Part shown: positions 1-18,161 of the stretch, piece after piece
Numbering within the stretch: position 1 is the stretch's first letter
Layout: every line of letters starts with the position of its first letter
Virus record (IMG/VR): IMGVR_UViG_2681813201_000019
Length of the DNA stretch: 43,972 nt
Source of the DNA: a virus
Taxonomy: Duplodnaviria; Heunggongvirae; Uroviricota; Caudoviricetes
Direction: 5' to 3' (one strand)
Program-made: the position numbers and the translations under genes
Notes under the pieces: model-generated
The model's input: only the letters and a program-made list of their open reading frames with translations
Told to the model about the DNA's origin: nothing
Databases searched by the model: none

Positions 1-879
1 ATAACAATCGACGATTGCTGGAAAGGCTGGGCCATACTCCTCCGGCAGAAGCAGAAAAAGCTTATTATGCTTCCATCGGAAACGATGATCTGGCAGCCTG
101 AGTTCACAGATAAAACACTCTCCAGGAAACCCGGGGCGGTTCAACTTCGCGACATCACGGCAGGAGAACTAGAACAATATGCTGCTGGCTTACGGGAAAA
201 ATTACGTCCGTCAACAGTAAACCGTATCCTCGCAATATTGTCCAAAATATGCTCTCTGGCAGTACGTGCTGGATGGATCACGCATTCCCCGATGTCACAT
301 GTCCGCTATCTGAAAGAAAATAACATTCGCTATCGCACACTATCAGCGACAGAAATCCCGCGCTTTATTGACGCGGCAACAGCGCTGCAAACACCGGCAG
401 CTGATTCTATATTGCTTGCTCTTTATACGGGGATGCGTATTGGTGAGGTATGTACCCTGAAATGGGAGTACTGGCACCTGGATATGCATCAACTCATACT
501 GCCTGATACAAAGTCCGGACACCCTTTCACCTGCCCACTTGCACCTCCAGCCATTGCAGTTGTCCAGTGCCAGCAGGACCTGATGCTCAGCAAAACTTAC
601 ATTTTTCCGCGACTAACCGACAATGCCCGCCCTCTGGCATATCCGCGTGCAACCTTTGCCCGTATTTGCCGGGATGCCGACATTGATAACCTGCGGATGC
701 ATGACCTGCGCCGTACCTTTGCCACCCGGGTACTACAGGCGACCGGGGATATTGCAATCGCTTCCCATCTGCTAAATCACCATTCACTCACGGCGACCCG
801 TCGCTACGCTTTTCACAATGCAGCGACATCACACGCAGTGGTTTCTCAGGTCATTGAAAGTTATGACACGAAAAAATGA
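1..879 (+). CDS. Tyrosine recombinase/integrase, catalytic C-terminal domain (5'-partial; reading frame is open to base 1)
   Basis: Frame 1 is open from position 1; catalytic motifs MHDLRRTFATR and LLNHHSLTATRRYA (R..HxxR..Y) are typical of phage-integrase-family tyrosine recombinases. Confidence 0.8.
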   Translation: MTIDDCWKGWAILLRQKQKKLIMLPSETMIWQPEFTDKTLSRKPGAVQLRDITAGELEQYAAGLREKLRPSTVNRILAILSKICSLAVRAGWITHSPMSHVRYLKENNIRYRTLSATEIPRFIDAATALQTPAADSILLALYTGMRIGEVCTLKWEYWHLDMHQLILPDTKSGHPFTCPLAPPAIAVVQCQQDLMLSKTYIFPRLTDNARPLAYPRATFARICRDADIDNLRMHDLRRTFATRVLQATGDIAIASHLLNHHSLTATRRYAFHNAATSHAVVSQVIESYDTKK

Positions 880-1076
880 ACCAATGATCTGTGATTCGTG
901 AAAGCAGTTCGCAGAAAGATTTAATCTTTCTGCATCCACGGTTGCGTCAGATATTTCTCGCAATCCCGGAAAACTCCCGCCCTTCATCAGAATTGGGCGG
1001 GCTATACGATTCTCTCTTGACGATATTGTTGATTGGGAAAATGCACATCGTCAAAACAAACTTAAAGGTGATATAA

Positions 1077-1715
1077 ATGGTTACTAAGAACACGGAAAAT
1101 AACGCTAATAATGCACTGAACATTCTTCCCGAATCAGCAAGCACAGCTGTAGACAACGATGAAAAATATCTGTCCTTTGCATTAGTTCTCGCTATCACGA
1201 TTATGGGCAACTTAGTAAAGCTCATCGGCACAGATGGCTTCATACTTTATACCTACACCCTGCAGGACACGGCTACTGCTCGTGCTGTTTTTAATGAATT
1301 AGCCAGGCGTCTCAAAAATTTCAATCGTCAGGAGGAGGTCTACACCACCGATTCCCTCACCTTTCGAATGAAATACATTTACGGTGTTACCCTGTTCGAA
1401 CATGATAGTAAATCTATCCTTAACCTTTTTGATAAGAAGGGTTATCCAGTATTGAGTGAATCAGGAGAACCCGGTTCTCTTGATGATATGTATCTTGACA
1501 TTCAAGCCCGATTACATGGCGGCTACGCCTCAAAAAAGTTTCTTCATTTACATGAACATTGTCTGTTATCTGCACACGTTACCCCGTCTGTGGAAAAGAC
1601 GCAACGTGGTATCCTGATTAAAGCAGGCAGGAAACTCGTTTCCTTTATCTATGCAGATAATGAATCTCGCAAAAATGATATTTTCAAAGCTGTAGTAGAC
1701 GTCATTAAATCCTGA
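1077..1715 (+). CDS. Hypothetical protein (212 aa)
   Basis: Intact ORF between the recombinase and the polymerase, followed by a hairpin plus T-run; no motif recognised. Confidence 0.45.
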   Translation: MVTKNTENNANNALNILPESASTAVDNDEKYLSFALVLAITIMGNLVKLIGTDGFILYTYTLQDTATARAVFNELARRLKNFNRQEEVYTTDSLTFRMKYIYGVTLFEHDSKSILNLFDKKGYPVLSESGEPGSLDDMYLDIQARLHGGYASKKFLHLHEHCLLSAHVTPSVEKTQRGILIKAGRKLVSFIYADNESRKNDIFKAVVDVIKS

Positions 1716-1718
1716 TTC

Positions 1719-1755
1719 ATTATGCCGGGGGGGACGAACTCCCGGCATTTTTTCG
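1719..1755 (+). terminator. Putative rho-independent terminator
   Basis: GC-rich inverted repeat (tgccggg...cccggca) followed by a T-run, directly after the 1077..1715 stop. Confidence 0.45.
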
Positions 1756-1764
1756 GAGTTAACT

Positions 1765-4320
1765 ATGAGCAATAATTTGCAGGACATCCTCGCTGCCGCA
1801 TCGGGGTATCAGTCCGTGACTTCAGAGCCAGCGCTCAATCTTAAAAGACCTAAAACGCTTGATGATTATCCTGTGATACCACCTGCATCAAAAAAAGTAT
1901 CTGTTATTTCAAGTGACCTGACACTCCATATCGGTTTTGATACCGAATATGTTTTCAATCCTGAAACACAACAGAATGATATTCTGTCATATCAGAGTTA
2001 TGTTGTCTTACCCGATAATACAGGTATATCGAACATTATCTATCCACCTGACTCACAGAAAAAATCCCGGCTGTCTTTTAAGAACTTTCTCTGTCAAACG
2101 ATTACACCGCTTCTTGAAACGGGTGTGATTACAAAATGGCCCGGTATTATTAATATATATGCGCATTTCATTCGTGCGGATATCACCTCCTTTGCCAATT
2201 TCTGGTCAGACTACAAAATTCTTCTGAAAGGAATACGCGGTACTGTCAGCAGCTTCAAAAATCGTTACGGTATCGATTTTGATGAACAGCAGGAACGTCG
2301 CGTAAAGACTGAACAGATAATGTTTGACAAACGAACTTCCCCTCCGCGTTGCAGTAACGTAGCTTTCATCGATACACTGCTTATCACTCCCGGGGGTATG
2401 GGTCTGGCTGAATGTGGTGAATTACTGGGTCTTCCCAAACTGACCATTCCTGCACCTTATTCCATAACCAATATGCGTGAATATCTTCTGGGCGACAGAG
2501 CAGGGTTTGAAGCCTATGCTCTGCGGGATGCCGAGATTGCGGTTCGTTATGCTTTACAGGTTCGCAATTTTTGCGCCCGGGAGCTGATGATTGATCGTGT
2601 CCCCGCCACCATCGGGGCGATGGCAGTTTCACGGTTCACCAAAACACTTAAAGAAAACAATATGTCTCCTGAAGTCTGCCTTGGGACACACATTAAAACC
2701 CGTGAACTCTGGCTCACGGAGAAACAGGCATTCCGGACGATTAAAAACCCCGCCAGTGTTCCTTCAAGAGAGCTGTTTGAAACGTTCCCGATCAACTGTT
2801 ACCACGGCGGACGCAATGAGTGTTTTATGATGGGGGTTACACCGTCTGATCACTGGTATGACTACGATCTGGCTGGAGCGTATACCACCGGGCTATTAGA
2901 TATCCTCATACCCGATTACGGAAACATCCGCCTCAGTAAAAATCCGGACGATTACTGTGGGCATGTAATGGGATTTGCGTTTGTCACATTTCAGTTCCCG
3001 GAATCAGTTCCCTATCCCAGCCTGCCGGTTCGGACCGATCAATATGGGTTATTCTTTCCATTAAGTGGCGAATCATGGGCAACGGCACCTGAAATCGAAC
3101 TTGCTCTGTCGCTCGGGGCAGAGATGACGATCCATAATGGGATCATCGTCCCCTGGATCTGTGACACCTCCCCACATAACAGCGAATCAACATCGGTGTT
3201 TCTTCCCTTTGTTCAACAGGTCCGTGAGAACCGTAATCGCCATATTAAAGGTTCTCTGGAGGAGAAATTCTGGAAAGAAATTGGCAACTCGCTTTATGGC
3301 AAACTTGCTCAGGGCCTTCGCGCCAAAACCGCCTTTGATACTGCCCGTGGATTAAACAGATCCCTCCCACCATCATCGGTTACTCAGCCATTCTTTGCTG
3401 CGCATGTGACGGGATTTATCCGCGCCGTTGTCGGGGAACTCATGAATGCTTTGCCTTCTGATTCATCGGTTGTCAGCGTCACAACCGATGGCTTTTTGAC
3501 AAATTGCCCACTTAACAAGATAAACATGAGCGGTCCACTGTCTTCCCGCTTCCAGTCGCTGTGCGATATTGTTGATCCGGGTTCATCAATGTTGACATGT
3601 AAGCATGAGGTCAGCCAGCTTATCGCCATGAAAACCCGGGGGCAGTTAACCTATAGAGCTATTCAGGGAAAACCTGTTGTTCATGCCAGGGCTGGCGTCA
3701 AACCTCCTGCCGATATTCCACGCAGTGACTATAACGACTATATGGTAGATCTTTACCTTAATCGTTTACCCGGTCAGACGTTATCCCGAAGTACGTTGAT
3801 ATCAACGCGTGAGATGTGGCTGTCGGAAAGCGATCTGGTATCCCGGGAACAGGATATCCGTCTTAATCTGGAATTCGATTTCAAACGCCAGCCCGTACAG
3901 CCCGCCATGAATGAAGGGCATTTACTGATGTCTTCCCGCCCATGGGATAATATGGAAGAGGCTCTGCAGCAACGCTCTCTTTTCGACGACTGGCGGCAAA
4001 CGCATACACTGAAGACCCTGGCTGACTGGGATGACTGGTGTGATTTTCTCTATTGCCGGACGGTGTTTTCTGATATGAAACTAAAAGTCGGAAGCAAACG
4101 TAGTGATGATATTTTAGTCAGACTATTTCTCCGGGCGCTGACTCAGTGCCAATGGGGGCTTATGCTGAAAGATAAAAAAAGTTATTCCTGTAAAGAGGTT
4201 GCTGAATGGCTGACGTCAGAAGGCTATTCAGTAACATGTCAAAAAGCACCTGCTGGATCTCCCGGGCCCGAAGGTCGCAGTAACGTATCTTCCCCAGACG
4301 AGGTTCAATGTATTGCGTGA
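1765..4320 (+). CDS. Family-B DNA polymerase, piPolB-like (primer-independent PolB of pipolins)
   Basis: 851 aa; Exo I-like HIGFDTEY, motif A-like YDYDLAGAY, motif B KEIGNSLYGKLAQ (Kx3NSxYG), motif C-like VSVTTDGF, and KTRG in AMKTRGQ; lies beside a recombinase and a UDG-like gene at a tRNA-Leu att site. Confidence 0.8.
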   Translation: MSNNLQDILAAASGYQSVTSEPALNLKRPKTLDDYPVIPPASKKVSVISSDLTLHIGFDTEYVFNPETQQNDILSYQSYVVLPDNTGISNIIYPPDSQKKSRLSFKNFLCQTITPLLETGVITKWPGIINIYAHFIRADITSFANFWSDYKILLKGIRGTVSSFKNRYGIDFDEQQERRVKTEQIMFDKRTSPPRCSNVAFIDTLLITPGGMGLAECGELLGLPKLTIPAPYSITNMREYLLGDRAGFEAYALRDAEIAVRYALQVRNFCARELMIDRVPATIGAMAVSRFTKTLKENNMSPEVCLGTHIKTRELWLTEKQAFRTIKNPASVPSRELFETFPINCYHGGRNECFMMGVTPSDHWYDYDLAGAYTTGLLDILIPDYGNIRLSKNPDDYCGHVMGFAFVTFQFPESVPYPSLPVRTDQYGLFFPLSGESWATAPEIELALSLGAEMTIHNGIIVPWICDTSPHNSESTSVFLPFVQQVRENRNRHIKGSLEEKFWKEIGNSLYGKLAQGLRAKTAFDTARGLNRSLPPSSVTQPFFAAHVTGFIRAVVGELMNALPSDSSVVSVTTDGFLTNCPLNKINMSGPLSSRFQSLCDIVDPGSSMLTCKHEVSQLIAMKTRGQLTYRAIQGKPVVHARAGVKPPADIPRSDYNDYMVDLYLNRLPGQTLSRSTLISTREMWLSESDLVSREQDIRLNLEFDFKRQPVQPAMNEGHLLMSSRPWDNMEEALQQRSLFDDWRQTHTLKTLADWDDWCDFLYCRTVFSDMKLKVGSKRSDDILVRLFLRALTQCQWGLMLKDKKSYSCKEVAEWLTSEGYSVTCQKAPAGSPGPEGRSNVSSPDEVQCIA

Positions 4321-4738
4321 AACGCTGAACATCCTTATCCCAGGACTTTTTATGGCGTTTGATGAACGGAACATAGGTCTGGTGAAAAAACTCACTAAGT
4401 GTTGGCATCGCACGATAATTATCGCGTTCTGCTTTAGGGTCATTTCCCAGTGCAATCGCCTCCTTGTGACGACGAGCTATCTGACGGGCTGTCCCCACAT
4501 CGATTTCAGGGAATCTGCCAATACTGATACTTTTTTTGGTACCGTGGAATGTGTAGCGCAGGAGGAAACGTTTGTTACCCGTTCGACCTGAGAGACATTT
4601 GAGGCCTATGACCTCGGTATCTGATACCTCAAGCTCTGTAGATCGGGTATCTGTGTTTGCCGGAAGGGCTTTGATGGATGAATTGGTGAATCGGAAGGAT
4701 TTTTGCATATTTATCCTCATGTATCTGATTGATATCAT
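4160..4738 (-). pseudogene. P4-type integrase N-terminal fragment (arm-binding and N-terminal domains only, catalytic domain missing)
   Basis: N-terminal region resembles the P4-like integrase arm-binding/SAM-like domain (LLRYTFHGTKKSISIGRFPEIDVGTARQIARRHKEAIALGNDP... FTQYIEPRLGKIRYCDLRAREIQQVLFDML); sequence then degenerates and the ORF runs into the convergent 3' end of the polymerase gene; no R..HxxR..Y domain. Confidence 0.55.
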
Positions 4739-4788
4739 GAAAATAATATATATCTGAAGGTGTTTTTATTACGGGGCAGGATTGAAGA

Positions 4789-5529
4789 ATGGAAAAGCTA
4801 TTAGACGCGTACAAACGGATATTGCAGGAAGTTAACGCCCAGTCATTTAACCTGAATGAGGATAAATACTCAGGCGTCTTTTTACCCGTGCCGTTTGAAG
4901 AATACTGGCATTCACCGATAAAAATCATGCTGGTTGGACGTGAAACCGCAGGCTGGAATACGCTGAATGGTAAGAATACGATATCACGGGTGTTGGGACT
5001 TATACCTGACGTCACCATCGGGCAAGTGGTTGAAGAAGCTGTAGATCGTTACAGGAAACATCTTCCGGTACAAAATTATGGCACCGCCAACCTCAAATCA
5101 CGTAGCCGCTTCACGCAATATCATTTCAGGCTGGCCCGGGAGCTTAATATTCTTCCCCAGGCAATCGTGTATGCCAATCTACTGGCGTGGGATTACGACG
5201 GACTGACCCCTCTCAATCGCCCTCAAAATGAAGTGCAGGAAGTCATATTAGCCTCGCTGAAGCTACTGGCGGTACAAATTAAACACCTTGAGCCTGATTT
5301 CATCATCTTTGCATCTGGAGCCCGGAGAACAGACTACATCATAAAACAGGTGCTTACTGAGCTAGGCGGCTATGAGACTTCTTCAGTCATTCCGGGGAAG
5401 CTGTGGGAGTTCAAAACAGGTAATACAATCTGTTTCAGAATTGCCCATCCAAGGGCTATGCGCGGACACCAGAAGTACAGAGATGAGGTGATTGCACGAA
5501 TTAAGCAACTTTGTACTCAGGGTGGCTAG
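4789..5529 (+). CDS. Uracil-DNA-glycosylase-like protein (family-4-like)
   Basis: N-terminal IMLVGRETAGW resembles the UDG GE(A/G)PG motif region and C-terminal FRIAHPRAMRGH resembles the HPS motif region; assignment by motif resemblance only. Confidence 0.45.
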   Translation: MEKLLDAYKRILQEVNAQSFNLNEDKYSGVFLPVPFEEYWHSPIKIMLVGRETAGWNTLNGKNTISRVLGLIPDVTIGQVVEEAVDRYRKHLPVQNYGTANLKSRSRFTQYHFRLARELNILPQAIVYANLLAWDYDGLTPLNRPQNEVQEVILASLKLLAVQIKHLEPDFIIFASGARRTDYIIKQVLTELGGYETSSVIPGKLWEFKTGNTICFRIAHPRAMRGHQKYRDEVIARIKQLCTQGG

Positions 5530-5932: not shown

Positions 5933-6934
5933 TTACCCTCTATTGTCAAAAGGGTTCAATTCAACAGCAGCCTCTAAATGACCTGGAGCAAAATGCGCAT
6001 AACGCATAGTCATTTTTATATCGCTATGCCCCAGTATTTTTTGCAACACAAGAATATTTCCGCCCCGCATCATAAAATGACTGGCAAACGTGTGACGTAG
6101 CACATGAGTTAATTGCCCATCAGGAAGCTCGATCTTCGCTCTCTTAATTGCAGCGTCAAAAGCCTCATAACATGGTGAAAATAGCGCTCCTCGTTTTTTG
6201 GGAAGCATAGCCTGCAATTGAGGTGAAATCGGTACAGTGCGGTTCTTCTTTCCTTTAGTTTTAACAAATGTGATTCGACCGGGCAGTACTTGAGATTGCT
6301 TTAATCCTTCTGCTTCACTCCACCGAGCACCAGTCGCAAGCCCAATACGGACAACAACCCCCAAATCTTTATTCCGTGACTCATCACACGCAATCAGAAG
6401 GCGTTCAATCTCATCTACATACAGAAACGCCAGTTCCTTTTCTTCCTCACGAAACTTGCGAATACCAGTCAGGGGGTTTTCACCAGACCACTCCCCAAGG
6501 CGCTTCAGTTCGGCAAAAACAGCATGTAGATATGACTGCTCGCGATTAACGGTTGCTTCACTAAGTTTTTTCTTCCCCTTGGGATTCCATTCTCCTGATA
6601 GCCTTCTTTCCCGATAAGTGGCAAACATATTTTTGTCAAACTGAGAAGCAAATGGATCTCCCAGCCTGGAACAAATCGCCTCAAGTTTGACTTTGCGCTC
6701 TGCACCAGAGGACAAGGTTTTACCGTACATCTCAAACCAACGAGCAATCAACTCAGAAAGACGAGGACCAGAACCATCTTGAAACTCGTCTCCAACTCTA
6801 CTATTCATTAAACGGCGCTCATAAGAGAGCGCCTCACTTTTTGTCGCAAACTGTTTACGAATGCGTTTTCCCGATGCCCCGTAGGGATAACATTCGCAAA
6901 GCCATTTACCTGATGGAATCTTACGAACCGACAT
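5933..6934 (-). CDS. int: Phage integrase (P2 Int family tyrosine recombinase)
   Basis: 333 aa; TGARWSEAEGLK, ITFVKTKGKKNRTVPIS and THVLRHTFASHFMMRGGNILVLQKILGHSDIKMTMRYAHF closely resemble P2 Int; lies about 100 bp from the att repeat. Confidence 0.9.
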   Translation of the reverse strand: MSVRKIPSGKWLCECYPYGASGKRIRKQFATKSEALSYERRLMNSRVGDEFQDGSGPRLSELIARWFEMYGKTLSSGAERKVKLEAICSRLGDPFASQFDKNMFATYRERRLSGEWNPKGKKKLSEATVNREQSYLHAVFAELKRLGEWSGENPLTGIRKFREEEKELAFLYVDEIERLLIACDESRNKDLGVVVRIGLATGARWSEAEGLKQSQVLPGRITFVKTKGKKNRTVPISPQLQAMLPKKRGALFSPCYEAFDAAIKRAKIELPDGQLTHVLRHTFASHFMMRGGNILVLQKILGHSDIKMTMRYAHFAPGHLEAAVELNPFDNRG

Positions 6935-7316: not shown

Positions 7317-7967
7317 TTACAAATTAAAAAACGCCCTAGAAATGACACCGCCTACCAAAACCCCTACGCAGATAAAGAATATTATTTCTTTTGGATAAAG
7401 TCGGATTAATTCTGAAGCACGAAGTCGGACTTCTGGTAAGGTCGAACTCTCTGTGTGGCTTGATGCCGATTGTTGCTCTAACCACGACAATGCAGACTGT
7501 AACTGAGAACGAGTAAGATCGTTTAAACGTCCTGTACCGAAATTGATATGGCAATACCGCAGAAGTTTTTGTCGAAGTCCACAGTCTTCACTGTTACGTA
7601 GTAATAAACTTACAAGAGCCTTACAGGCATCATGATCTTTACATCGCTCAAGCATTGCATGCAGAAAACTCTCCGCTGTTTTATATTGATTTACTGTCAT
7701 ATCATCAATACCAGCTACACCAATCTCCGCATGTACTTTTTGCCAAATAATAAACGCTTCAGTATTGCTAGCTTCTGCAATAGCAGCAACCAAGCTATTC
7801 AGCTCCTTACGCTGAGCCTTAAGCAAAGGGCGATCGTCATCATCATTATTCGAAGGGATTGCGATATTGACGGTATGAGAACCATCATATCGCTCTATCT
7901 GAATATTCTTTTCGTGAAAATCACGCCCAGCAACGCGATTGTTTGAACCGTTTGAGTTGACGGCCAT
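7317..7967 (-). CDS. Hypothetical membrane-anchored protein (216 aa)
   Basis: C-terminal hydrophobic segment IIFFICVGVLVGGVI; N-terminal motif NNRVAGRDF resembles the C-terminal tail of the adjacent repressor. Confidence 0.45.
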   Translation of the reverse strand: MAVNSNGSNNRVAGRDFHEKNIQIERYDGSHTVNIAIPSNNDDDDRPLLKAQRKELNSLVAAIAEASNTEAFIIWQKVHAEIGVAGIDDMTVNQYKTAESFLHAMLERCKDHDACKALVSLLLRNSEDCGLRQKLLRYCHINFGTGRLNDLTRSQLQSALSWLEQQSASSHTESSTLPEVRLRASELIRLYPKEIIFFICVGVLVGGVISRAFFNL

Positions 7968-12209: not shown

Positions 12210-15032
12210 ATGACGGCAGAGTACATCAGGGACTGGCAACAACCGCGCCACGCAGTGGGGCGTGAAGGAACGGGGATCCCCGCTCCTGAATCCGCGCTTT
12301 CCTCCTGGCTGGATGCCTACCGGGTAGAGAACGAGCGCCGCCAGGAAATGGCTGATGCGGCGTTCTCCGCCACGCCGCTGGGCAACCTGATTAATAAAAG
12401 CCTGGACGCACAGGAAAAACAGGACAAAACCATCACACTGGCAGGAGACGCCAGAAAACAGGCACGCGGCGCAGTGGATGAAGCCATGACCTCGCTGCGC
12501 CTGCTGCCGTCCTATCTGCGCGATCCGCTTATTCGCCACCTCTCCTTCCTGCGCAAAAAACAGGAAGCCGATCGCCGGAAAGGCAAAAAGAGCTGGCAGG
12601 CGGAACGCTATGCACGCGGAACCCTGCGCAAAATATTCGAACGTCTGGACCGCACCGATCACCGCTGGCTGACACCGGGTTATCGCTCCCTTGCCGGACG
12701 CGAACGCCTGGACGATTTGCTTTACCTGCCGCAGCTCAACAAACACCAGATACAGACGCTGGCCACCATGACGGCGGCGATGTTCAGCAGCACCTTCGAA
12801 AAACTCTGCGATGGCTTTGGCGCGACTGATGGCGAACTGACCATGGATGTAACGCTGAAGGCGTATCAGATGCTGGCCCGCATGGCGTTACACCTGCACG
12901 CCATGCCTCCACATTATGACGCACTGACAACAGACAAAGACCGGAGGAACGAACCGGACACAGAGCTGCTGCCGGGCGCAATCCTTCGCCTGACCTGTGC
13001 GGAATGGTGGAAACGCAAACTGTGGCTGTTACGTTGCGAGTGGAGAGAAGAACAACTCCGCGCCGCCTGTCTGGTTTCCAGAAAAACATCGCCCTATCTG
13101 AGCCAGGACGCGTTAAGCGAGTTTCGCGCACAGCGCGAGAAAACACGCGATTTCCTGAAAAGTTTCATGCTGGAAAACGAAGACGGGTTCACGATTGATC
13201 TCGAGACAGTGTATTACGCGGGAGTAAGTAACCCGGTTCACCGTAAGGCAGAAATGATGGCCACCATGAAGGGACTGGAACTTCTGGCCGAAGCCCGTGG
13301 CGACAGAGCGGTGTTTCTGACTGTCACCTGCCCGTCAAAATACCACGCAACAACGGAGAACGGTCATCCGAACCCCAAATGGAACGGGGCCACCATGCGC
13401 GACTCCAGCGATTACCTGGTTAACACGTTTTTTGCGGCGGTCCGCAAAAAACTGAACCGCGACGGCCTGCGCTGGTATGGCATCCGCACGGTGGAGCCTC
13501 ACCATGACGGCACCGTGCACTGGCATATGATGGTCTTTGCTCATCCGGAAGAAATCGACAGCATCGTGGCCATCACCCGCGATATTGCCATTCAGGAAGA
13601 CCGCCACGAGCTGGGCAATGATATTACTCCGCGCTTTAAAGTGGAGTATGTCGACGGCTCAAAAGGCACACCAACCAGCTATATCGCGACCTACATCGGG
13701 AAAAACCTGGACAGCCGCGCCGTGGATGGCATCGACCCGAAAACGGGCAAACCACGCGTTGACCACGAAACCGGAAAATCAATGGCCGAGAGCGTGGAGC
13801 GCGCCATCGGTTGGGCACGCCTTCACCGGGTCCGCCAGTTCCAGTTCTTTGGCATCCCCTCCCGTCAGGTGTGGCGTGAACTCCGCCGCCTTGCCAGCCA
13901 GATGGCACGCAACCCGGAAGGCCCGCAACGGCTGAAGGATGACGCAATGGATGCGGTACTCGCTGCCGCTGATGCCGGATGTTTTGCCACCTACATAGAG
14001 AAACAGGGCGGCGTACTTGTTCCACGCAAAGACTACCTGATTCGCACCGCCTACGACCTCGCCGATGAGCTGAACGATTACGGCGAACAGAGTGTACAGA
14101 TTTACGGGATCTGGTCACCACTCATCGGGGAATCCTCCCGTGTGTGCACGCACCCGGATAACTGGAAGCTGGTAAGACGTAAACCGGAACAGGAAGGCAG
14201 CGCCCACGAAAATGGTTTTGACCTTCAGGGCGGCCCTGCCGCCCCTTGGACTCGTGGCAATAACTGTCCCCGTGTACAGGAAACGGACAACAACGGGACA
14301 GAACAGCCGGAAGAACGGCCAGCACCGTGGCCGCAGCTCCCTGACGGCGTTGAAGTGAACGAATGGATGCGCTCACTGAAACGGCACGAACGCCGGGCGC
14401 TGATGCGTTCGCTTCGTGACAAACAGGCAAAAAACAGCAGTGATGAAATGCAGAGCTGGACACAGAGCCGCAAACAGCAGCGGCCTTTGCCTGATAACCA
14501 CGAATTACTCGCTAAAGAATGGCGGGAGTCTGCTGAATCTCTCGGCCTGCATATCGGTGAACAACAGATGCAGCACCTGTTACGGGGCGGCAGTCTGTAC
14601 GTTGACGGCAGCATCATTGCACCGCAGGGGTTTGAAATTGTACGCAAACCGGATACCCGCCCGGACAGCCGAATCACGCAGCTCTGGCAGCGCCTGAGCC
14701 GTAATCACGGCGTAAGCAGCACGGAGATCCGCCATAACCCGGTCGCCAGCTATCTGGCGCAACTGGGGGCATCAGACCCTGAAGCCGCCGCACGCCTGGC
14801 ATCCACACTTCAGCAGGACCAGAACACCATGAAAACACCCGTTACCGTGCTTTCTGACATGCTGCGCGCCATCCGCGACACAGAGCACGCACAGAGAATC
14901 AGTGAAACCACTGAACGCGCCCGCCGCAAAGCAGACCTGCTGCGGGGTGGCCTGACCATTGGAAACAAAAAACAGACAGAAACGGGATTCACAAATCCCG
15001 TAAATGAGCAAAAAACGCGCCGCGATATATGA
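12210..15032 (+). CDS. A: Replication initiation endonuclease, gpA-like (rolling-circle HUH initiator)
   Basis: 940 aa; HUH motif HWHMMVF and tyrosine pair in TSYIATYIGKN typical of the P2 A / phiX174 A superfamily; expected position after the early genes. Confidence 0.85.
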   Translation: MTAEYIRDWQQPRHAVGREGTGIPAPESALSSWLDAYRVENERRQEMADAAFSATPLGNLINKSLDAQEKQDKTITLAGDARKQARGAVDEAMTSLRLLPSYLRDPLIRHLSFLRKKQEADRRKGKKSWQAERYARGTLRKIFERLDRTDHRWLTPGYRSLAGRERLDDLLYLPQLNKHQIQTLATMTAAMFSSTFEKLCDGFGATDGELTMDVTLKAYQMLARMALHLHAMPPHYDALTTDKDRRNEPDTELLPGAILRLTCAEWWKRKLWLLRCEWREEQLRAACLVSRKTSPYLSQDALSEFRAQREKTRDFLKSFMLENEDGFTIDLETVYYAGVSNPVHRKAEMMATMKGLELLAEARGDRAVFLTVTCPSKYHATTENGHPNPKWNGATMRDSSDYLVNTFFAAVRKKLNRDGLRWYGIRTVEPHHDGTVHWHMMVFAHPEEIDSIVAITRDIAIQEDRHELGNDITPRFKVEYVDGSKGTPTSYIATYIGKNLDSRAVDGIDPKTGKPRVDHETGKSMAESVERAIGWARLHRVRQFQFFGIPSRQVWRELRRLASQMARNPEGPQRLKDDAMDAVLAAADAGCFATYIEKQGGVLVPRKDYLIRTAYDLADELNDYGEQSVQIYGIWSPLIGESSRVCTHPDNWKLVRRKPEQEGSAHENGFDLQGGPAAPWTRGNNCPRVQETDNNGTEQPEERPAPWPQLPDGVEVNEWMRSLKRHERRALMRSLRDKQAKNSSDEMQSWTQSRKQQRPLPDNHELLAKEWRESAESLGLHIGEQQMQHLLRGGSLYVDGSIIAPQGFEIVRKPDTRPDSRITQLWQRLSRNHGVSSTEIRHNPVASYLAQLGASDPEAAARLASTLQQDQNTMKTPVTVLSDMLRAIRDTEHAQRISETTERARRKADLLRGGLTIGNKKQTETGFTNPVNEQKTRRDI

Positions 15033-15108
15033 AGCGCGCATAAAACAGGCAAAAACGGGATTTCAGAATCCCGTAAACGATTAATTAATCAACATAAGGA
15101 AAAGCGAC
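14975..15108. promoter_or_regulatory. Two 20-bp palindromes ACGGGATT-N4-AATCCCGT about 70 bp apart, immediately upstream of the parM-like gene (candidate parC/operator)
   Basis: Perfect 8-bp inverted arms with 4-bp spacers at about 14981..15000 and 15053..15072; no T-run, so not typical intrinsic terminators. Confidence 0.4.
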
Positions 15109-16384: not shown

Positions 16385-16447
16385 CACAACATCAGGGCGC
16401 ATCCGCCCTGATGACTTTAACCCGGGAACATAAACAAGGGGGACACA

Positions 16448-16780
16448 ATGCAACACATTGACAGAGAAAAAGCGCAGCGACTGATTGAGCGGATGGAAGC
16501 GCTGGCGCAAGAAGAAAATGTCAACATCCAAAAAATAGCTGAATGTGGCCAGATAGTTCTTCGTCGTGAAAAAGACCTCAAACAACTGATGTCTGGCAAA
16601 ACCAGCAAAACATGGGCTTCAGGCGAGGAAACGATTTATTGCAGCTTCTGCAATAAATCCCAGTACGAAGTCACAAAGGTGATTGCTGGACCGTCTGTTT
16701 ACATCTGCAATGAGTGCGTGGATTTGTGCAATGAAATTATCAGGAGAGAAGTGGCAGACAAAAAGGGAAAAAACACATGA
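16448..16780 (+). CDS. ClpX N-terminal zinc-binding-domain (C4 zinc finger) protein, no AAA+ module
   Basis: 110 aa; C-terminal [39 protein letters not shown] nearly matches the ClpX zinc-binding domain ([33 protein letters not shown]); N-terminal half is charged/helical. Confidence 0.75.
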
Positions 16781-17091
16781 ACAGAAAACAAAAACAAGAG
16801 TTGAAATACTTTTTACGTAAAGAAATTGCCAGGCTTGAAGATGCAGAATCACGATCATCAGAAATTCCGTTCGGAATGGATATCAACGACGCCCGTATGC
16901 TCCAGGCATACCGTATAGCTCAGGCTGCACTACAGGCAAAACCGTCAGATGGACTGGTTAGAGCAGTACGTTTCTATGAACTGGTAAAGCGTGAGAATCC
17001 GCCAACCGAAACCGGAGCATGGAAAGACGCTGTTGACTGGGTGCTCAGAGAAGCTTGCCAGACTGTAAACATTGGTATCAAAGGAGAGTGA
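16777..17091 (+). CDS. Hypothetical protein (104 aa)
   Basis: ORF translationally coupled to the ClpX-ZBD gene; ends ...NIGIKGE. Confidence 0.45.
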
Positions 17092-17093
17092 GA

Positions 17094-17585
17094 GTGCAGA
17101 TTTCACCGGTTACTCTTCGTGTTGCGAAGGCATTTATATCCAGACATCACCGACACAATAAACCCCCGGTGGGGCATAAATTCAGCATTGGTCTGAGAAA
17201 TGATGCCGGAGAATTGATAGGTGTGGCGACAGCCGGTCGACCTGTTGCACGACATTTGGATGATGGATTAACGCTTGAAGTAAATCGCACATGTACCACA
17301 GGAGAACGCAACGCTAACAGCGCGCTTTATGGTGCTGTCTGGCGGGCAGCAAAAGCTATGGGTTATCAACGTTGTATTACGTACACCCGGGCAGATGAAT
17401 CAGGAGCATCTCTTCGCGCAGCTGGTTTTGTTCGTGTGAAAGAGCTTCCTCCAAGAAAAAGCTGGGCGGAATCAAGCGTCGCCCTGCGGAGTAAACGCGA
17501 TCCAGTCGGAAACGGTGGTGTTCCTCGTGTGCTCTGGGAAATCAGGAGAATGAGTACCACTGGTATTCGCATCAAAGGAGAGTGA
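17094..17585 (+). CDS. Hypothetical protein, possibly GNAT-fold (GTG start)
   Basis: GTG 7 nt after AAGGAG; C-terminal region ...NANSALYGAVWRAAKAMGYQRCITYTRADESGASLRAAGF weakly resembles an acyl-CoA N-acyltransferase fold; ends ...GIRIKGE. Confidence 0.4.
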   Translation: MQISPVTLRVAKAFISRHHRHNKPPVGHKFSIGLRNDAGELIGVATAGRPVARHLDDGLTLEVNRTCTTGERNANSALYGAVWRAAKAMGYQRCITYTRADESGASLRAAGFVRVKELPPRKSWAESSVALRSKRDPVGNGGVPRVLWEIRRMSTTGIRIKGE

Positions 17586-17586
17586 T

Positions 17587-17850
17587 ATGGCAACTTTGAC
17601 AAAAAAAGAACGGGCATGGTTGAATGAATTACAGGACGTTCTTGATCGCTGCCCATCACCGAAAAAAATTGGTTTTTACACCATTGGCGATAAAAGCATT
17701 TACCTGTATGACCTGCGCCGCATGGATGAAATCATGGAGGCTCTTGATAATCGTTCGTCAATGGATTGGTGTGTTGCTGTTCATGATATGAATGCAGGGT
17801 TTGATGAAAAGATTTTGTTCCCCTCATCAGTTGAAAGCACAGCAGGATAA
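17587..17850 (+). CDS. Hypothetical protein (87 aa)
   Basis: ORF in the same operon. Confidence 0.45.
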   Translation: MATLTKKERAWLNELQDVLDRCPSPKKIGFYTIGDKSIYLYDLRRMDEIMEALDNRSSMDWCVAVHDMNAGFDEKILFPSSVESTAG

Positions 17851-17860
17851 GGACTAACAC

Positions 17861-18121
17861 ATGACAACTTTCACCGACAAAGAACTGATTAAAGAAATCA
17901 AAGAGCGCATAGGCAGCCTGGACGTTCGAGACAATATTGAGCGCCGTGCTTATGAAATTGCACTGGCATCACTGGAAGCAGAGCCAGTAGCATGGATGCA
18001 TGTAAATAACGGCATCGGAATACCAGCAATAACAAGGAGTAAAGAGGTTGCAGAGAGTTGGTTATCAAAAGGCTGGTATGTCCAACCCTTGCATCTAGCC
18101 CAGCCTGCATCAAAGCTATAG
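17861..18121 (+). CDS. Hypothetical protein (86 aa)
   Basis: Last ORF of the cargo operon, followed by a terminator. Confidence 0.45.
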   Translation: MTTFTDKELIKEIKERIGSLDVRDNIERRAYEIALASLEAEPVAWMHVNNGIGIPAITRSKEVAESWLSKGWYVQPLHLAQPASKL

Positions 18122-18130
18122 AAATGAGCC

Positions 18131-18160
18131 AAAACGCCCTCTTCCAGGGCGTTTATTTTA
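18131..18160 (+). terminator. Rho-independent terminator closing the cargo operon
   Basis: Hairpin aaacgccct-cttcc-agggcgttt followed by a T-rich run. Confidence 0.55.
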
Positions 18161-18161
18161 A

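Follow-up and report, generated by a model that had tools for sequence, protein, structure and literature searches.

What would a temperate phage gain from encoding one small domain of a host unfoldase and none of its motor? The question is raised by a gene in IMG/VR virus record IMGVR_UViG_2681813201_000019, a stretch of 43,972 nucleotides that we analysed whole and refer to here as the window. The window carries a P2-like prophage (Peduoviridae, P88/Xuanwuvirus-type), and the gene, a complete ATG-started open reading frame (ORF) of 110 codons at 16448..16780 on the plus strand (stop codon included), encodes a 110-aa protein in which an N-terminal two-helix hairpin is joined by a linker to a ClpX-type zinc-binding domain (ZBD) at the C-terminus. 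We tentatively favour the reading, to which we give somewhat less than an even chance, that the protein is a free ZBD that competes with the N-domain of host ClpX for adaptors and N-domain-dependent substrates. The gene is preceded by the Shine-Dalgarno-like AAGGGGGA (16433-16440, plus strand), 7 nt 5' of the ATG, and as read from the sequence this ribosome-binding site is graded strong. The protein is identical to RefSeq WP_001163786, which carries the label 'ClpX C4-type zinc finger protein' in the annotation of the gene of Escherichia coli NU14; older database records name it 'carboxylate--amine ligase', which is a misnomer. It also matches PHROG 6797, a phage family of unknown function (phrog_6797, E=6.8e-58, with residues 1-106 covering positions 5-107 of the 107 in the profile), and alignments show the same architecture in family members of about 101-129 aa.

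The C-terminal domain is readily recognizable as a ClpX-type C4 ZBD by Pfam, PDB search, alignment and model superposition, and spans residues 63-101 (16634..16750; this and all other parts of the gene lie on the plus strand). Pfam zf-C4_ClpX (PF06689) matches residues 64-99 at profile positions 2-38 of 39, scoring 66 bits (cut-off 27; E=2.8e-18), and a phmmer search of PDB sequences returns the ClpX ZBD entries 1ovx (E=2.5e-19) and 2ds5 (E=6.4e-19) on top, with ClpX entries as the only significant matches. Across ClpX residues 12-51 the window protein is identical to E. coli ClpX at 31 of 40 positions (78%). Four cysteines, C65, C68, C87 and C90 (codons 16640-16642, 16649-16651, 16706-16708 and 16715-16717), are in register with the four ClpX zinc ligands (CxxC...CxxC) and are invariant in all family members aligned, and the fifth conserved ClpX cysteine is also kept, as C94. 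The ZBD part of an AlphaFold2 model is a beta-hairpin plus a helix, and this predicted structure superposes on 2ds5, 2ds6 and 2ds8 with a root-mean-square deviation (rmsd) of 0.7 A and a target-normalised template-modelling (TM) score of 0.88-0.92. The C-terminal 40 residues are predicted to fold as a zinc-bound treble-clef ZBD with the hydrophobic docking patch of ClpX, whose residues F16, Y34 and I46 align with F67, Y85 and I97 of the window protein. The hydrophobic ZBD patch around F16/I46 is the docking site of SspB, RssB, trigger factor and lambda O alike (PMC7804408). We infer that the window protein binds zinc and dimerises.

The rest of ClpX is missing. The 110-aa protein contains neither an AAA+ module (Walker A/B, pore loops) nor ClpP-docking/IGF loops; it ends 9 residues past the ZBD helix, and the ClpX equivalogs TIGR00382/NF003745 match only at model positions 6-52 of 414, with 49.9 bits against a cut-off of 370.75, so that the ClpX models reach only about their first 50 positions. 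With no AAA+ module and no IGF loop, the protein cannot itself feed ClpP. An earlier note on this DNA had described a prophage-encoded near match to the ClpX N-domain without an ATPase module, and had suggested alignment with that domain as a check. The description stands in all three parts, the gene being situated between P2-type gpA/ParM/ParR and portal/terminase genes, and the alignment, now made, puts the four cysteines on the ClpX ligand positions. The function suggested there, that a free copy could be a decoy or competitor or could serve as an adaptor itself, is plausible.

What the earlier note overlooked is the N-terminal hairpin (residues 6-48, helices 6-22 and 27-48; 16463..16591), which makes up almost half of the protein and is recognized both in the AlphaFold2 model and in alignments. 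Block-mean confidence (predicted local distance difference test, pLDDT) is 76-95 across residues 1-50; for the whole model mean pLDDT is 80.6 and the predicted TM score (pTM) is 0.39, so that the geometry between the domains is not predicted. In family alignments residues 1-48 are conserved and amphipathic; E23 is invariant, and most members have C33. No Pfam or NCBIfam model matches the region, and a profile of it returned 59 matches in 5.8 billion clustered proteins and 23 in 1.84 billion representatives (the latter search exhaustive), the matches belonging to this family only and nearly all having a ZBD or being truncated copies. The hairpin was rejected as a known domain on these searches, which gave the protein's own family only, besides a few weak matches. 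The latter lack a ZBD (metagenomic P0173, P0175 and P0177, 62-85 aa, E 1e-4 to 1e-6); two of the group end in Pro-rich tails, and they could be hairpin-only relatives or frameshifted copies.

Between the two domains lies a flexible linker (residues 49-62; 16592..16633) that has pLDDT below 50 at residues 53-59 and varies in length and sequence across the family, and the protein closes with a short, charged and variable tail, VADKKGKNT (16751..16777). The tail does not contain an Ala-Ala ClpX degron, and no substrate-binding domain is recognisable in the window protein. Using LRVVK / LKxh as the criterion for an XB-like peptide of an SspB/RssB-type adaptor, we noted LKQL at residues 44-47, at the end of helix 2. 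This was considered as a self- or ClpX-docking peptide; relatives have IERL, IARL or IDRV at the position, which is not conserved, and the segment is confidently helical in the model.

Both the hairpin and the ZBD are under purifying selection. Pooled pairwise ratios of nonsynonymous to synonymous change (dN/dS) are 0.29-0.36 in the hairpin and 0.38-0.45 in the ZBD, and are relaxed, at 0.72-0.78, in the linker; the low values argue that both domains are functional and that the linker is a tether. The relationship to host clpX is old. ClpX codons 12-51 and the phage gene are 65% identical in nucleotides with a longest exact run of 7, synonymous differences from E. coli clpX are saturated (proportion of synonymous differences, pS, 0.98), and the third codon base is shared at only 12 of the 31 identical residues. 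Searched with blastn against 5426 complete E. coli genomes, the phage gene never matched clpX (the clpX 5' reference that we used is 100% identical to clpX in the genomes listed and 99% or more identical in each of the 5425 that matched it). Saturated synonymous sites together with 31 identical residues of 40 indicate that the resemblance is maintained by selection and not by recency, and the gene was acquired long ago and has been held close to ClpX by selection; it is no fresh clpX fragment. Recent capture, or a pseudogene, of host clpX was rejected for the silence of blastn, the synonymous saturation and the purifying selection. To the idea that the gene is a dead remnant of a captured clpX 5' end we give practically no chance. 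That only the first ClpX domain is present would suit it, but the gene is intact in 112 complete E. coli genomes and under purifying selection, is joined to a conserved domain that is not from ClpX, carries no nucleotide-level trace of clpX and has a strong ribosome-binding site; the intact copies, the selection and the saturation effectively refute it.

The family is dispersed, and its surroundings change. Full-length copies occur in 112 of the 5426 complete E. coli genomes, and the places counted number 128 on chromosomes and 105 on plasmids. In PLSDB, 146 plasmid records match, of which 134 are non-mobilizable, and in 94 records the copy covers at least 80% of the protein; the examples listed are plasmids of ~90 kb and ~110 kb, pECOH89 among them, and Shigella is among the records with a match. 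The phage-plasmid D6 (91 kb) and the phages CMS-2020a and PhiR41_1 (both ~108 kb) carry a copy that is 48-51% identical, and more distant members occur in other peduoviruses, in each case with gpA on one side and the portal gene on the other. The family is found among the accessory genes of three temperate-phage lineages, and the sources name as hosts Escherichia coli, E. albertii, E. marmotae, Salmonella enterica, Yersinia enterocolitica and Serratia. Across 80 loci compared, the upstream neighbour is ParR (43 loci), an Ead/Ea22-like gene, a winged-helix-like ORF, or a 96-aa ORF preceded by a methyltransferase-like gene, and the downstream neighbour is orf104, an ASCH-like ORF or another gene. 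The family is, on these observations, an autonomous single-gene module with changing neighbours.

Two partnerships can be considered in this light. The ORF immediately downstream in the window, orf104, overlaps the ZBD stop codon with its start by ATGA (translational coupling), and a two-gene system with orf104 was rejected on finding unrelated ORFs in its place at other loci. The protein could also be an accessory of ParM/ParR partition or of a plasmid-like lifestyle, as might be suggested by the 43 loci in which ParR lies directly upstream (40 of the 43 IMG/VR loci of E. coli P88 type, together with NU14, phage P88 and locus L078) and by the other large group of the family residing on phage-plasmids. 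We consider this far-fetched, however, as peduovirus loci L046, L047, L077 and L080 have the gene but nothing in its vicinity that matches ParM/ParR, there are P2-like phages in which the same ParMR module comes without the ZBD gene, their homology ending just 5' of its ATG, and the phage-plasmid copies do not lie beside partition genes. An obligate ParMR accessory is ruled out, there being both the gene without ParMR and ParMR without the gene. We also note that at two of these loci, L077 and L080 (4954-5685), the ZBD gene follows a ~240-aa methyltransferase-like ORF with a DPPY motif and the 96-aa ORF in the gpA-portal hotspot, a setting that fits counter-restriction-type cargo, and that the ZBD protein there clusters with Yersinia enterocolitica records.

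Under the decoy reading that we favour, a free mimic of the ClpX docking domain would present the same hydrophobic patch as the host enzyme and would compete with the three ZBD dimers of ClpX for ligands that dock there. These could be the adaptors SspB and RssB, and N-domain substrates such as lambda-O-like, MuA-like and unfolded MqsA-like proteins. Having neither ATPase ring nor ClpP-binding loops, the mimic would withhold what it binds from the protease, and the outcome would be a selective damping of ZBD-dependent ClpXP proteolysis in which pore-recognised substrates are spared. The tethered hairpin would supply a second function; judging from the amphipathic heptad pattern of a fold that is predicted only, it most plausibly oligomerises the protein and so adds avidity, or makes a second contact that adds target selectivity. 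Candidate payoffs would be the shielding of a ClpXP-labile phage protein or antitoxin, a raised level of sigma-S, and the exclusion of ClpX-dependent rival phages. Ligand binding by the window protein, as well as each of these physiological effects, is what we infer from the analysis, and there are direct biochemical precedents. Purified isolated ClpX ZBD dimerises and cross-links to RssB (Micevski et al. 2020, PMC7226468), and when added in trans at 5-20 uM it inhibits the RssB-mediated breakdown of sigma-S by ClpXP (PMC7226468). The XB peptide of SspB binds with tens-of-nM affinity both to isolated ZBD and to ClpX (PMC12373786).

Several considerations weigh against this interpretation. For RssB, free ClpX ZBD competes only weakly, at micromolar concentrations (PMC7226468), and a decoy of this strength would require either high expression or extra avidity; a simple scan found no consensus sigma-70 promoter near the gene. 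A simple decoy does not explain why the family has a conserved N-terminal domain of its own. The mimicry of the ClpX contact residues also appears imperfect from the alignment. ClpX L12, L13 and H23 correspond to T62, I63 and Y73 in the window protein, and the residue at ClpX position 12 varies among T, E, K and A in the family, being polar or small in nearly all members; at the H23 position some alleles retain the histidine. When these positions are mutated, ClpX no longer recognises the MqsA degron, and H23 has a part in binding the SspB tail as well (PMC8808172). Some relatives have a strongly altered beta-hairpin or helix (e.g. LMLTGETVCIC, CVKDCN), which is hard to reconcile with strict conservation of one set of ClpX ligands. 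Finally, we found no published experiment on any member of the family, or on a stand-alone phage ClpX ZBD, in the literature searched.

The ligand surface varies in a further respect. The docking-patch tyrosine is replaced in a subclade of otherwise near-identical alleles (Y85C, ClpX Y34; IMG/VR loci L017-L020, L023, L025 and L029), and Y64C is seen in one phage-plasmid subgroup; these alleles may reflect diversification of the ligand surface.

A doubtful but serious alternative is that the protein acts independently of ClpXP and uses the ZBD as a generic module for peptide binding or dimerisation, directed at a phage or host factor with, for example, a replication, partition or regulatory role. 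The loss of the contact residues L12 and H23 and the altered ClpX-like hairpin of divergent members are what such a role would allow, and so is the existence of other stand-alone ZBD architectures. These are the 65-aa ZBD-only phage proteins of phrog_12435 (e.g. 'Clp protease' of Pseudomonas phage PP9W2) and ~136-aa actinobacterial proteins in which an N-terminal ZBD precedes a helix-turn-helix-like tail; they resemble the window protein in having a ClpX-type ZBD without an ATPase, but differ in having no N-terminal hairpin and, in the actinobacterial case, in the N-terminal placement of the ZBD. A scan of genome contigs for the ZBD pattern gave, among the matches listed, only ordinary tig-clpP-clpX operons. 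On the other side, the 78% identity to E. coli ClpX in the subfamily of the window, despite synonymous saturation, seems to go beyond what upkeep of a fold would require, and the known docking-patch residues are kept.

The conserved hairpin suggests a different type of model, in which the protein does not withhold ligands from ClpX but serves as an adaptor or hijacker. The ZBD would be a handle on ClpX, for example through mixed ZBD dimers, and the hairpin would recruit a specific protein of the host or of a rival phage for degradation by ClpXP, or would sit over the pore and reprogramme substrate choice. A conserved and selected N-terminal domain suits a target-binding module, the ZBD C-terminal helix is almost identical to that of ClpX so that hetero-dimerisation is conceivable, and phage pseudo-adaptors of host Clp unfoldases exist, SPO1 Gp53 on ClpC being one (PMC6873191). 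We nonetheless consider it unlikely. Known ClpX adaptors present a peptide to the ZBD and carry no ZBD themselves; the ZBDs of ClpX are already paired in the hexamer, and a ZBD protein that is free would be expected to self-pair first; the family has no conserved partner gene beside it; and the interdomain geometry is not predicted in the model (pTM as given above). Quite unlikely too, in our estimation, is a viral specificity switch, in which the ZBD would insert into or dock on the N-domain layer of ClpX and the hairpin would pick a host or rival-phage protein, such as an immunity factor, either for delivery to ClpXP or for shielding from it.

Mu-type transposable phages require ClpX to remodel MuA, and this raises the possibility that decoy chemistry serves the lysogen, with the prophage-expressed protein blocking phages that need the ClpX N-domain, as old and tin act at the same P2 locus. 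The position of the gene is suggestive in that the gpA-gpQ interval is a published accessory and defence hotspot of P2, rich in exclusion genes (Rousset et al. 2022, PMC9122126), and this very protein appears in the supplementary table of that study, in cassettes given as 'StbA + Plasmid_stab_B + zf-C4_ClpX', with no mention of Clp or zinc in the main text. However, the hotspot also holds non-defence cargo such as partition systems (PMC9122126). Defence-system models of PADLOC-DB v2 match neither the ZBD protein nor its six neighbours, and on this result a known defence system was rejected. The neighbours are of the early-accessory or counter-defence type (Mom-like/XF1762, Ead/Ea22-like, orphan methyltransferase-like and ASCH-like ORFs), and the gene runs in the direction of the early replication operon, without a promoter of its own in the simple scan. 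Together these make a role in lysogen defence very unlikely in our judgement.

The window ZBD shares with the N-domain of ClpX its Pfam family, the four ligand cysteines and the fifth cysteine, 31 of 40 residues, the predicted fold to within 0.7 A and the F/Y/I patch. It differs in being phage-encoded with no nucleotide similarity to clpX, in lying C-terminally and not N-terminally behind an unrelated helical hairpin, in lacking the AAA+ ring and ClpP loops, and in the substitution of L12/L13/H23 by T/I/Y and of both G18 and D37 by N. Isolated ClpX ZBD was reportedly used in trans in biochemical assays by Wojtyra et al. in 2003 (JBC 278:48981). A close functional parallel is the isolated ClpX ZBD of PMC7226468, likewise a free ZBD without a motor, whose dimerisation, RssB binding and inhibition of ClpXP are the activity proposed here; that ZBD is a laboratory fragment, whereas the window protein is the product of a natural and selected gene with an extra domain, its activity being only proposed.

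Motorless partners and phage modulators of host proteases are known elsewhere. Lambda RexB (substrates of ClpXP and ClpAP) and the Lon-directed T4 PinA and T7 Gp4.5 modulate host proteolysis, and Gp53 is a small phage accessory protein that alters the targets of a host ATP-dependent protease; none of the four copies a protease domain, and their sequences and folds are unrelated to that of the window protein. The anti-adaptors IraD, IraM and IraP act at the RssB step to keep sigma-S from being delivered to ClpXP, much as a free ZBD would act as an anti-adaptor, and AppY is linked to stabilisation of sigma-S; these proteins have no sequence or fold kinship with the window protein. The authors of PMC7226468 proposed an overlapping RssB site for the ZBD and IraD, and AppY is described as a prophage gene acting on E. 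coli physiology (PMC10057817). Mycobacterial ClpC2 is a motorless partial homologue of ClpC1; it captures a ligand of the full-length enzyme and thereby shields ClpC1-dependent degradation from that ligand (PMC10030653), although it concerns another unfoldase and fold, is chromosomal and not viral, and has the antibiotic cyclomarin A as its ligand. We suggest that the window protein is best filed with phage modulators of host AAA+ proteases and with stand-alone unfoldase N-domain decoys such as ClpC2.

The ZBD gene is the first of a low-GC cargo module of five co-directional genes (ZBD, orf104, XF1762/Mom-like, orf87 and orf86; 16441..18161, plus strand), delimited by composition and breakpoints. 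The full order is gpA replication endonuclease, ParM, ParR, ZBD gene, orf104, XF1762/Mom-like, orf87, orf86, a terminator-like hairpin and convergent portal/terminase genes. GC content of the module is 0.41-0.52 against 0.49-0.62 in the flanks, and megablast homology to ParMR-carrying P2-like phages without the ZBD gene stops at ~16440 and resumes at ~18162; the hairpin that ends the module lies at 18132-18154 by terminator scan. The 333-bp ZBD gene is 100% identical in E. coli NU14 and two other genomes, and the NU14 proteins of the gpA-to-portal region are 99-100% identical to those of the window. A perfect 10-bp GC-rich hairpin in the gap between parR and the ZBD gene (16390..16413, plus strand; region z=-4.8) has no U-tract on the plus strand and lies in the ParMR module, ~27 nt before the cargo junction (~16440). 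It is terminator-like on the minus strand only, and at the module junction it may serve to stabilise mRNA or to attenuate. As there is neither a sigma-70 consensus nearby nor a plus-strand U-tract, the ZBD gene is probably expressed by read-through from early and/or parMR promoters.

Other features of the window are peripheral to these arguments. Both orf104 (16777-17091) and orf86 (17861-18121) match PHROG 660 and have Ead/Ea22-like coiled-coil N-termini, and they are mosaic accessory genes. The XF1762-family protein (17094-17585; NCBIfam 203 bits, PHROG 'Mom-like DNA modification protein', weak Pfam Mom) is by these matches a candidate DNA-modification or anti-restriction gene, and stretches of this gene, orf87 and orf86 are common to Stx and other lambdoid phages. 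Two 42-nt direct repeats in 14966-15080, one within the 3' end of gpA and the other in the gpA-parM gap, each contain the palindrome ACGGGATT-N4-AATCCCGT and are likely the parC centromere or ParR operator of the ParMR cassette. Just outside the P2-like integrase (5933..6934, minus strand), the window has a second tyrosine integrase (67..879), which is followed by three co-directional ORFs (212, 851 and 246 aa; within 67-5529) with no Pfam, NCBIfam or PADLOC match; a small integrative island beside the prophage is one possible reading of 67-5529, and an uncharacterised defence cassette there is another. Between the P2-like integrase and a repressor-like helix-turn-helix gene, a 216-aa ORF (7320-7967, minus strand) resembles the flagellar regulator Flk in part, at 58 bits and far below the cut-off, and is a possible membrane-anchored lysogenic-conversion gene.

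Recognition of the ZBD is not itself new, as RefSeq names it, PHROGs clusters it and the 2022 supplementary table lists it. New here are the two-domain architecture with a private hairpin, the selection on both domains, the ancient and selection-kept resemblance to ClpX, the mismatch at three ligand-contact positions, and the recognition of an autonomous module across peduoviruses and phage-plasmids of several enterobacterial genera. The ClpX N-domain is the hub by which SspB, RssB, lambda O, MuA and MqsA reach ClpXP, and if the decoy reading is true the family would be the first case of a virus inhibiting or re-programming a bacterial protease by domain mimicry, present in three temperate-phage lineages, and would offer a genetic tool to switch off only N-domain-dependent ClpXP proteolysis. 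If ClpXP proves to be untouched, the ZBD fold would have been reused as a general peptide-binding module, and if instead the specificity switch is true, the family would be a bacterial counterpart of eukaryotic viruses that re-target ubiquitin ligases, made by copying a piece of the protease. Competition with the ClpX N-domain, if it occurs, could explain prophage effects on the sigma-S stress response, on toxin-antitoxin activation or on rival phages.

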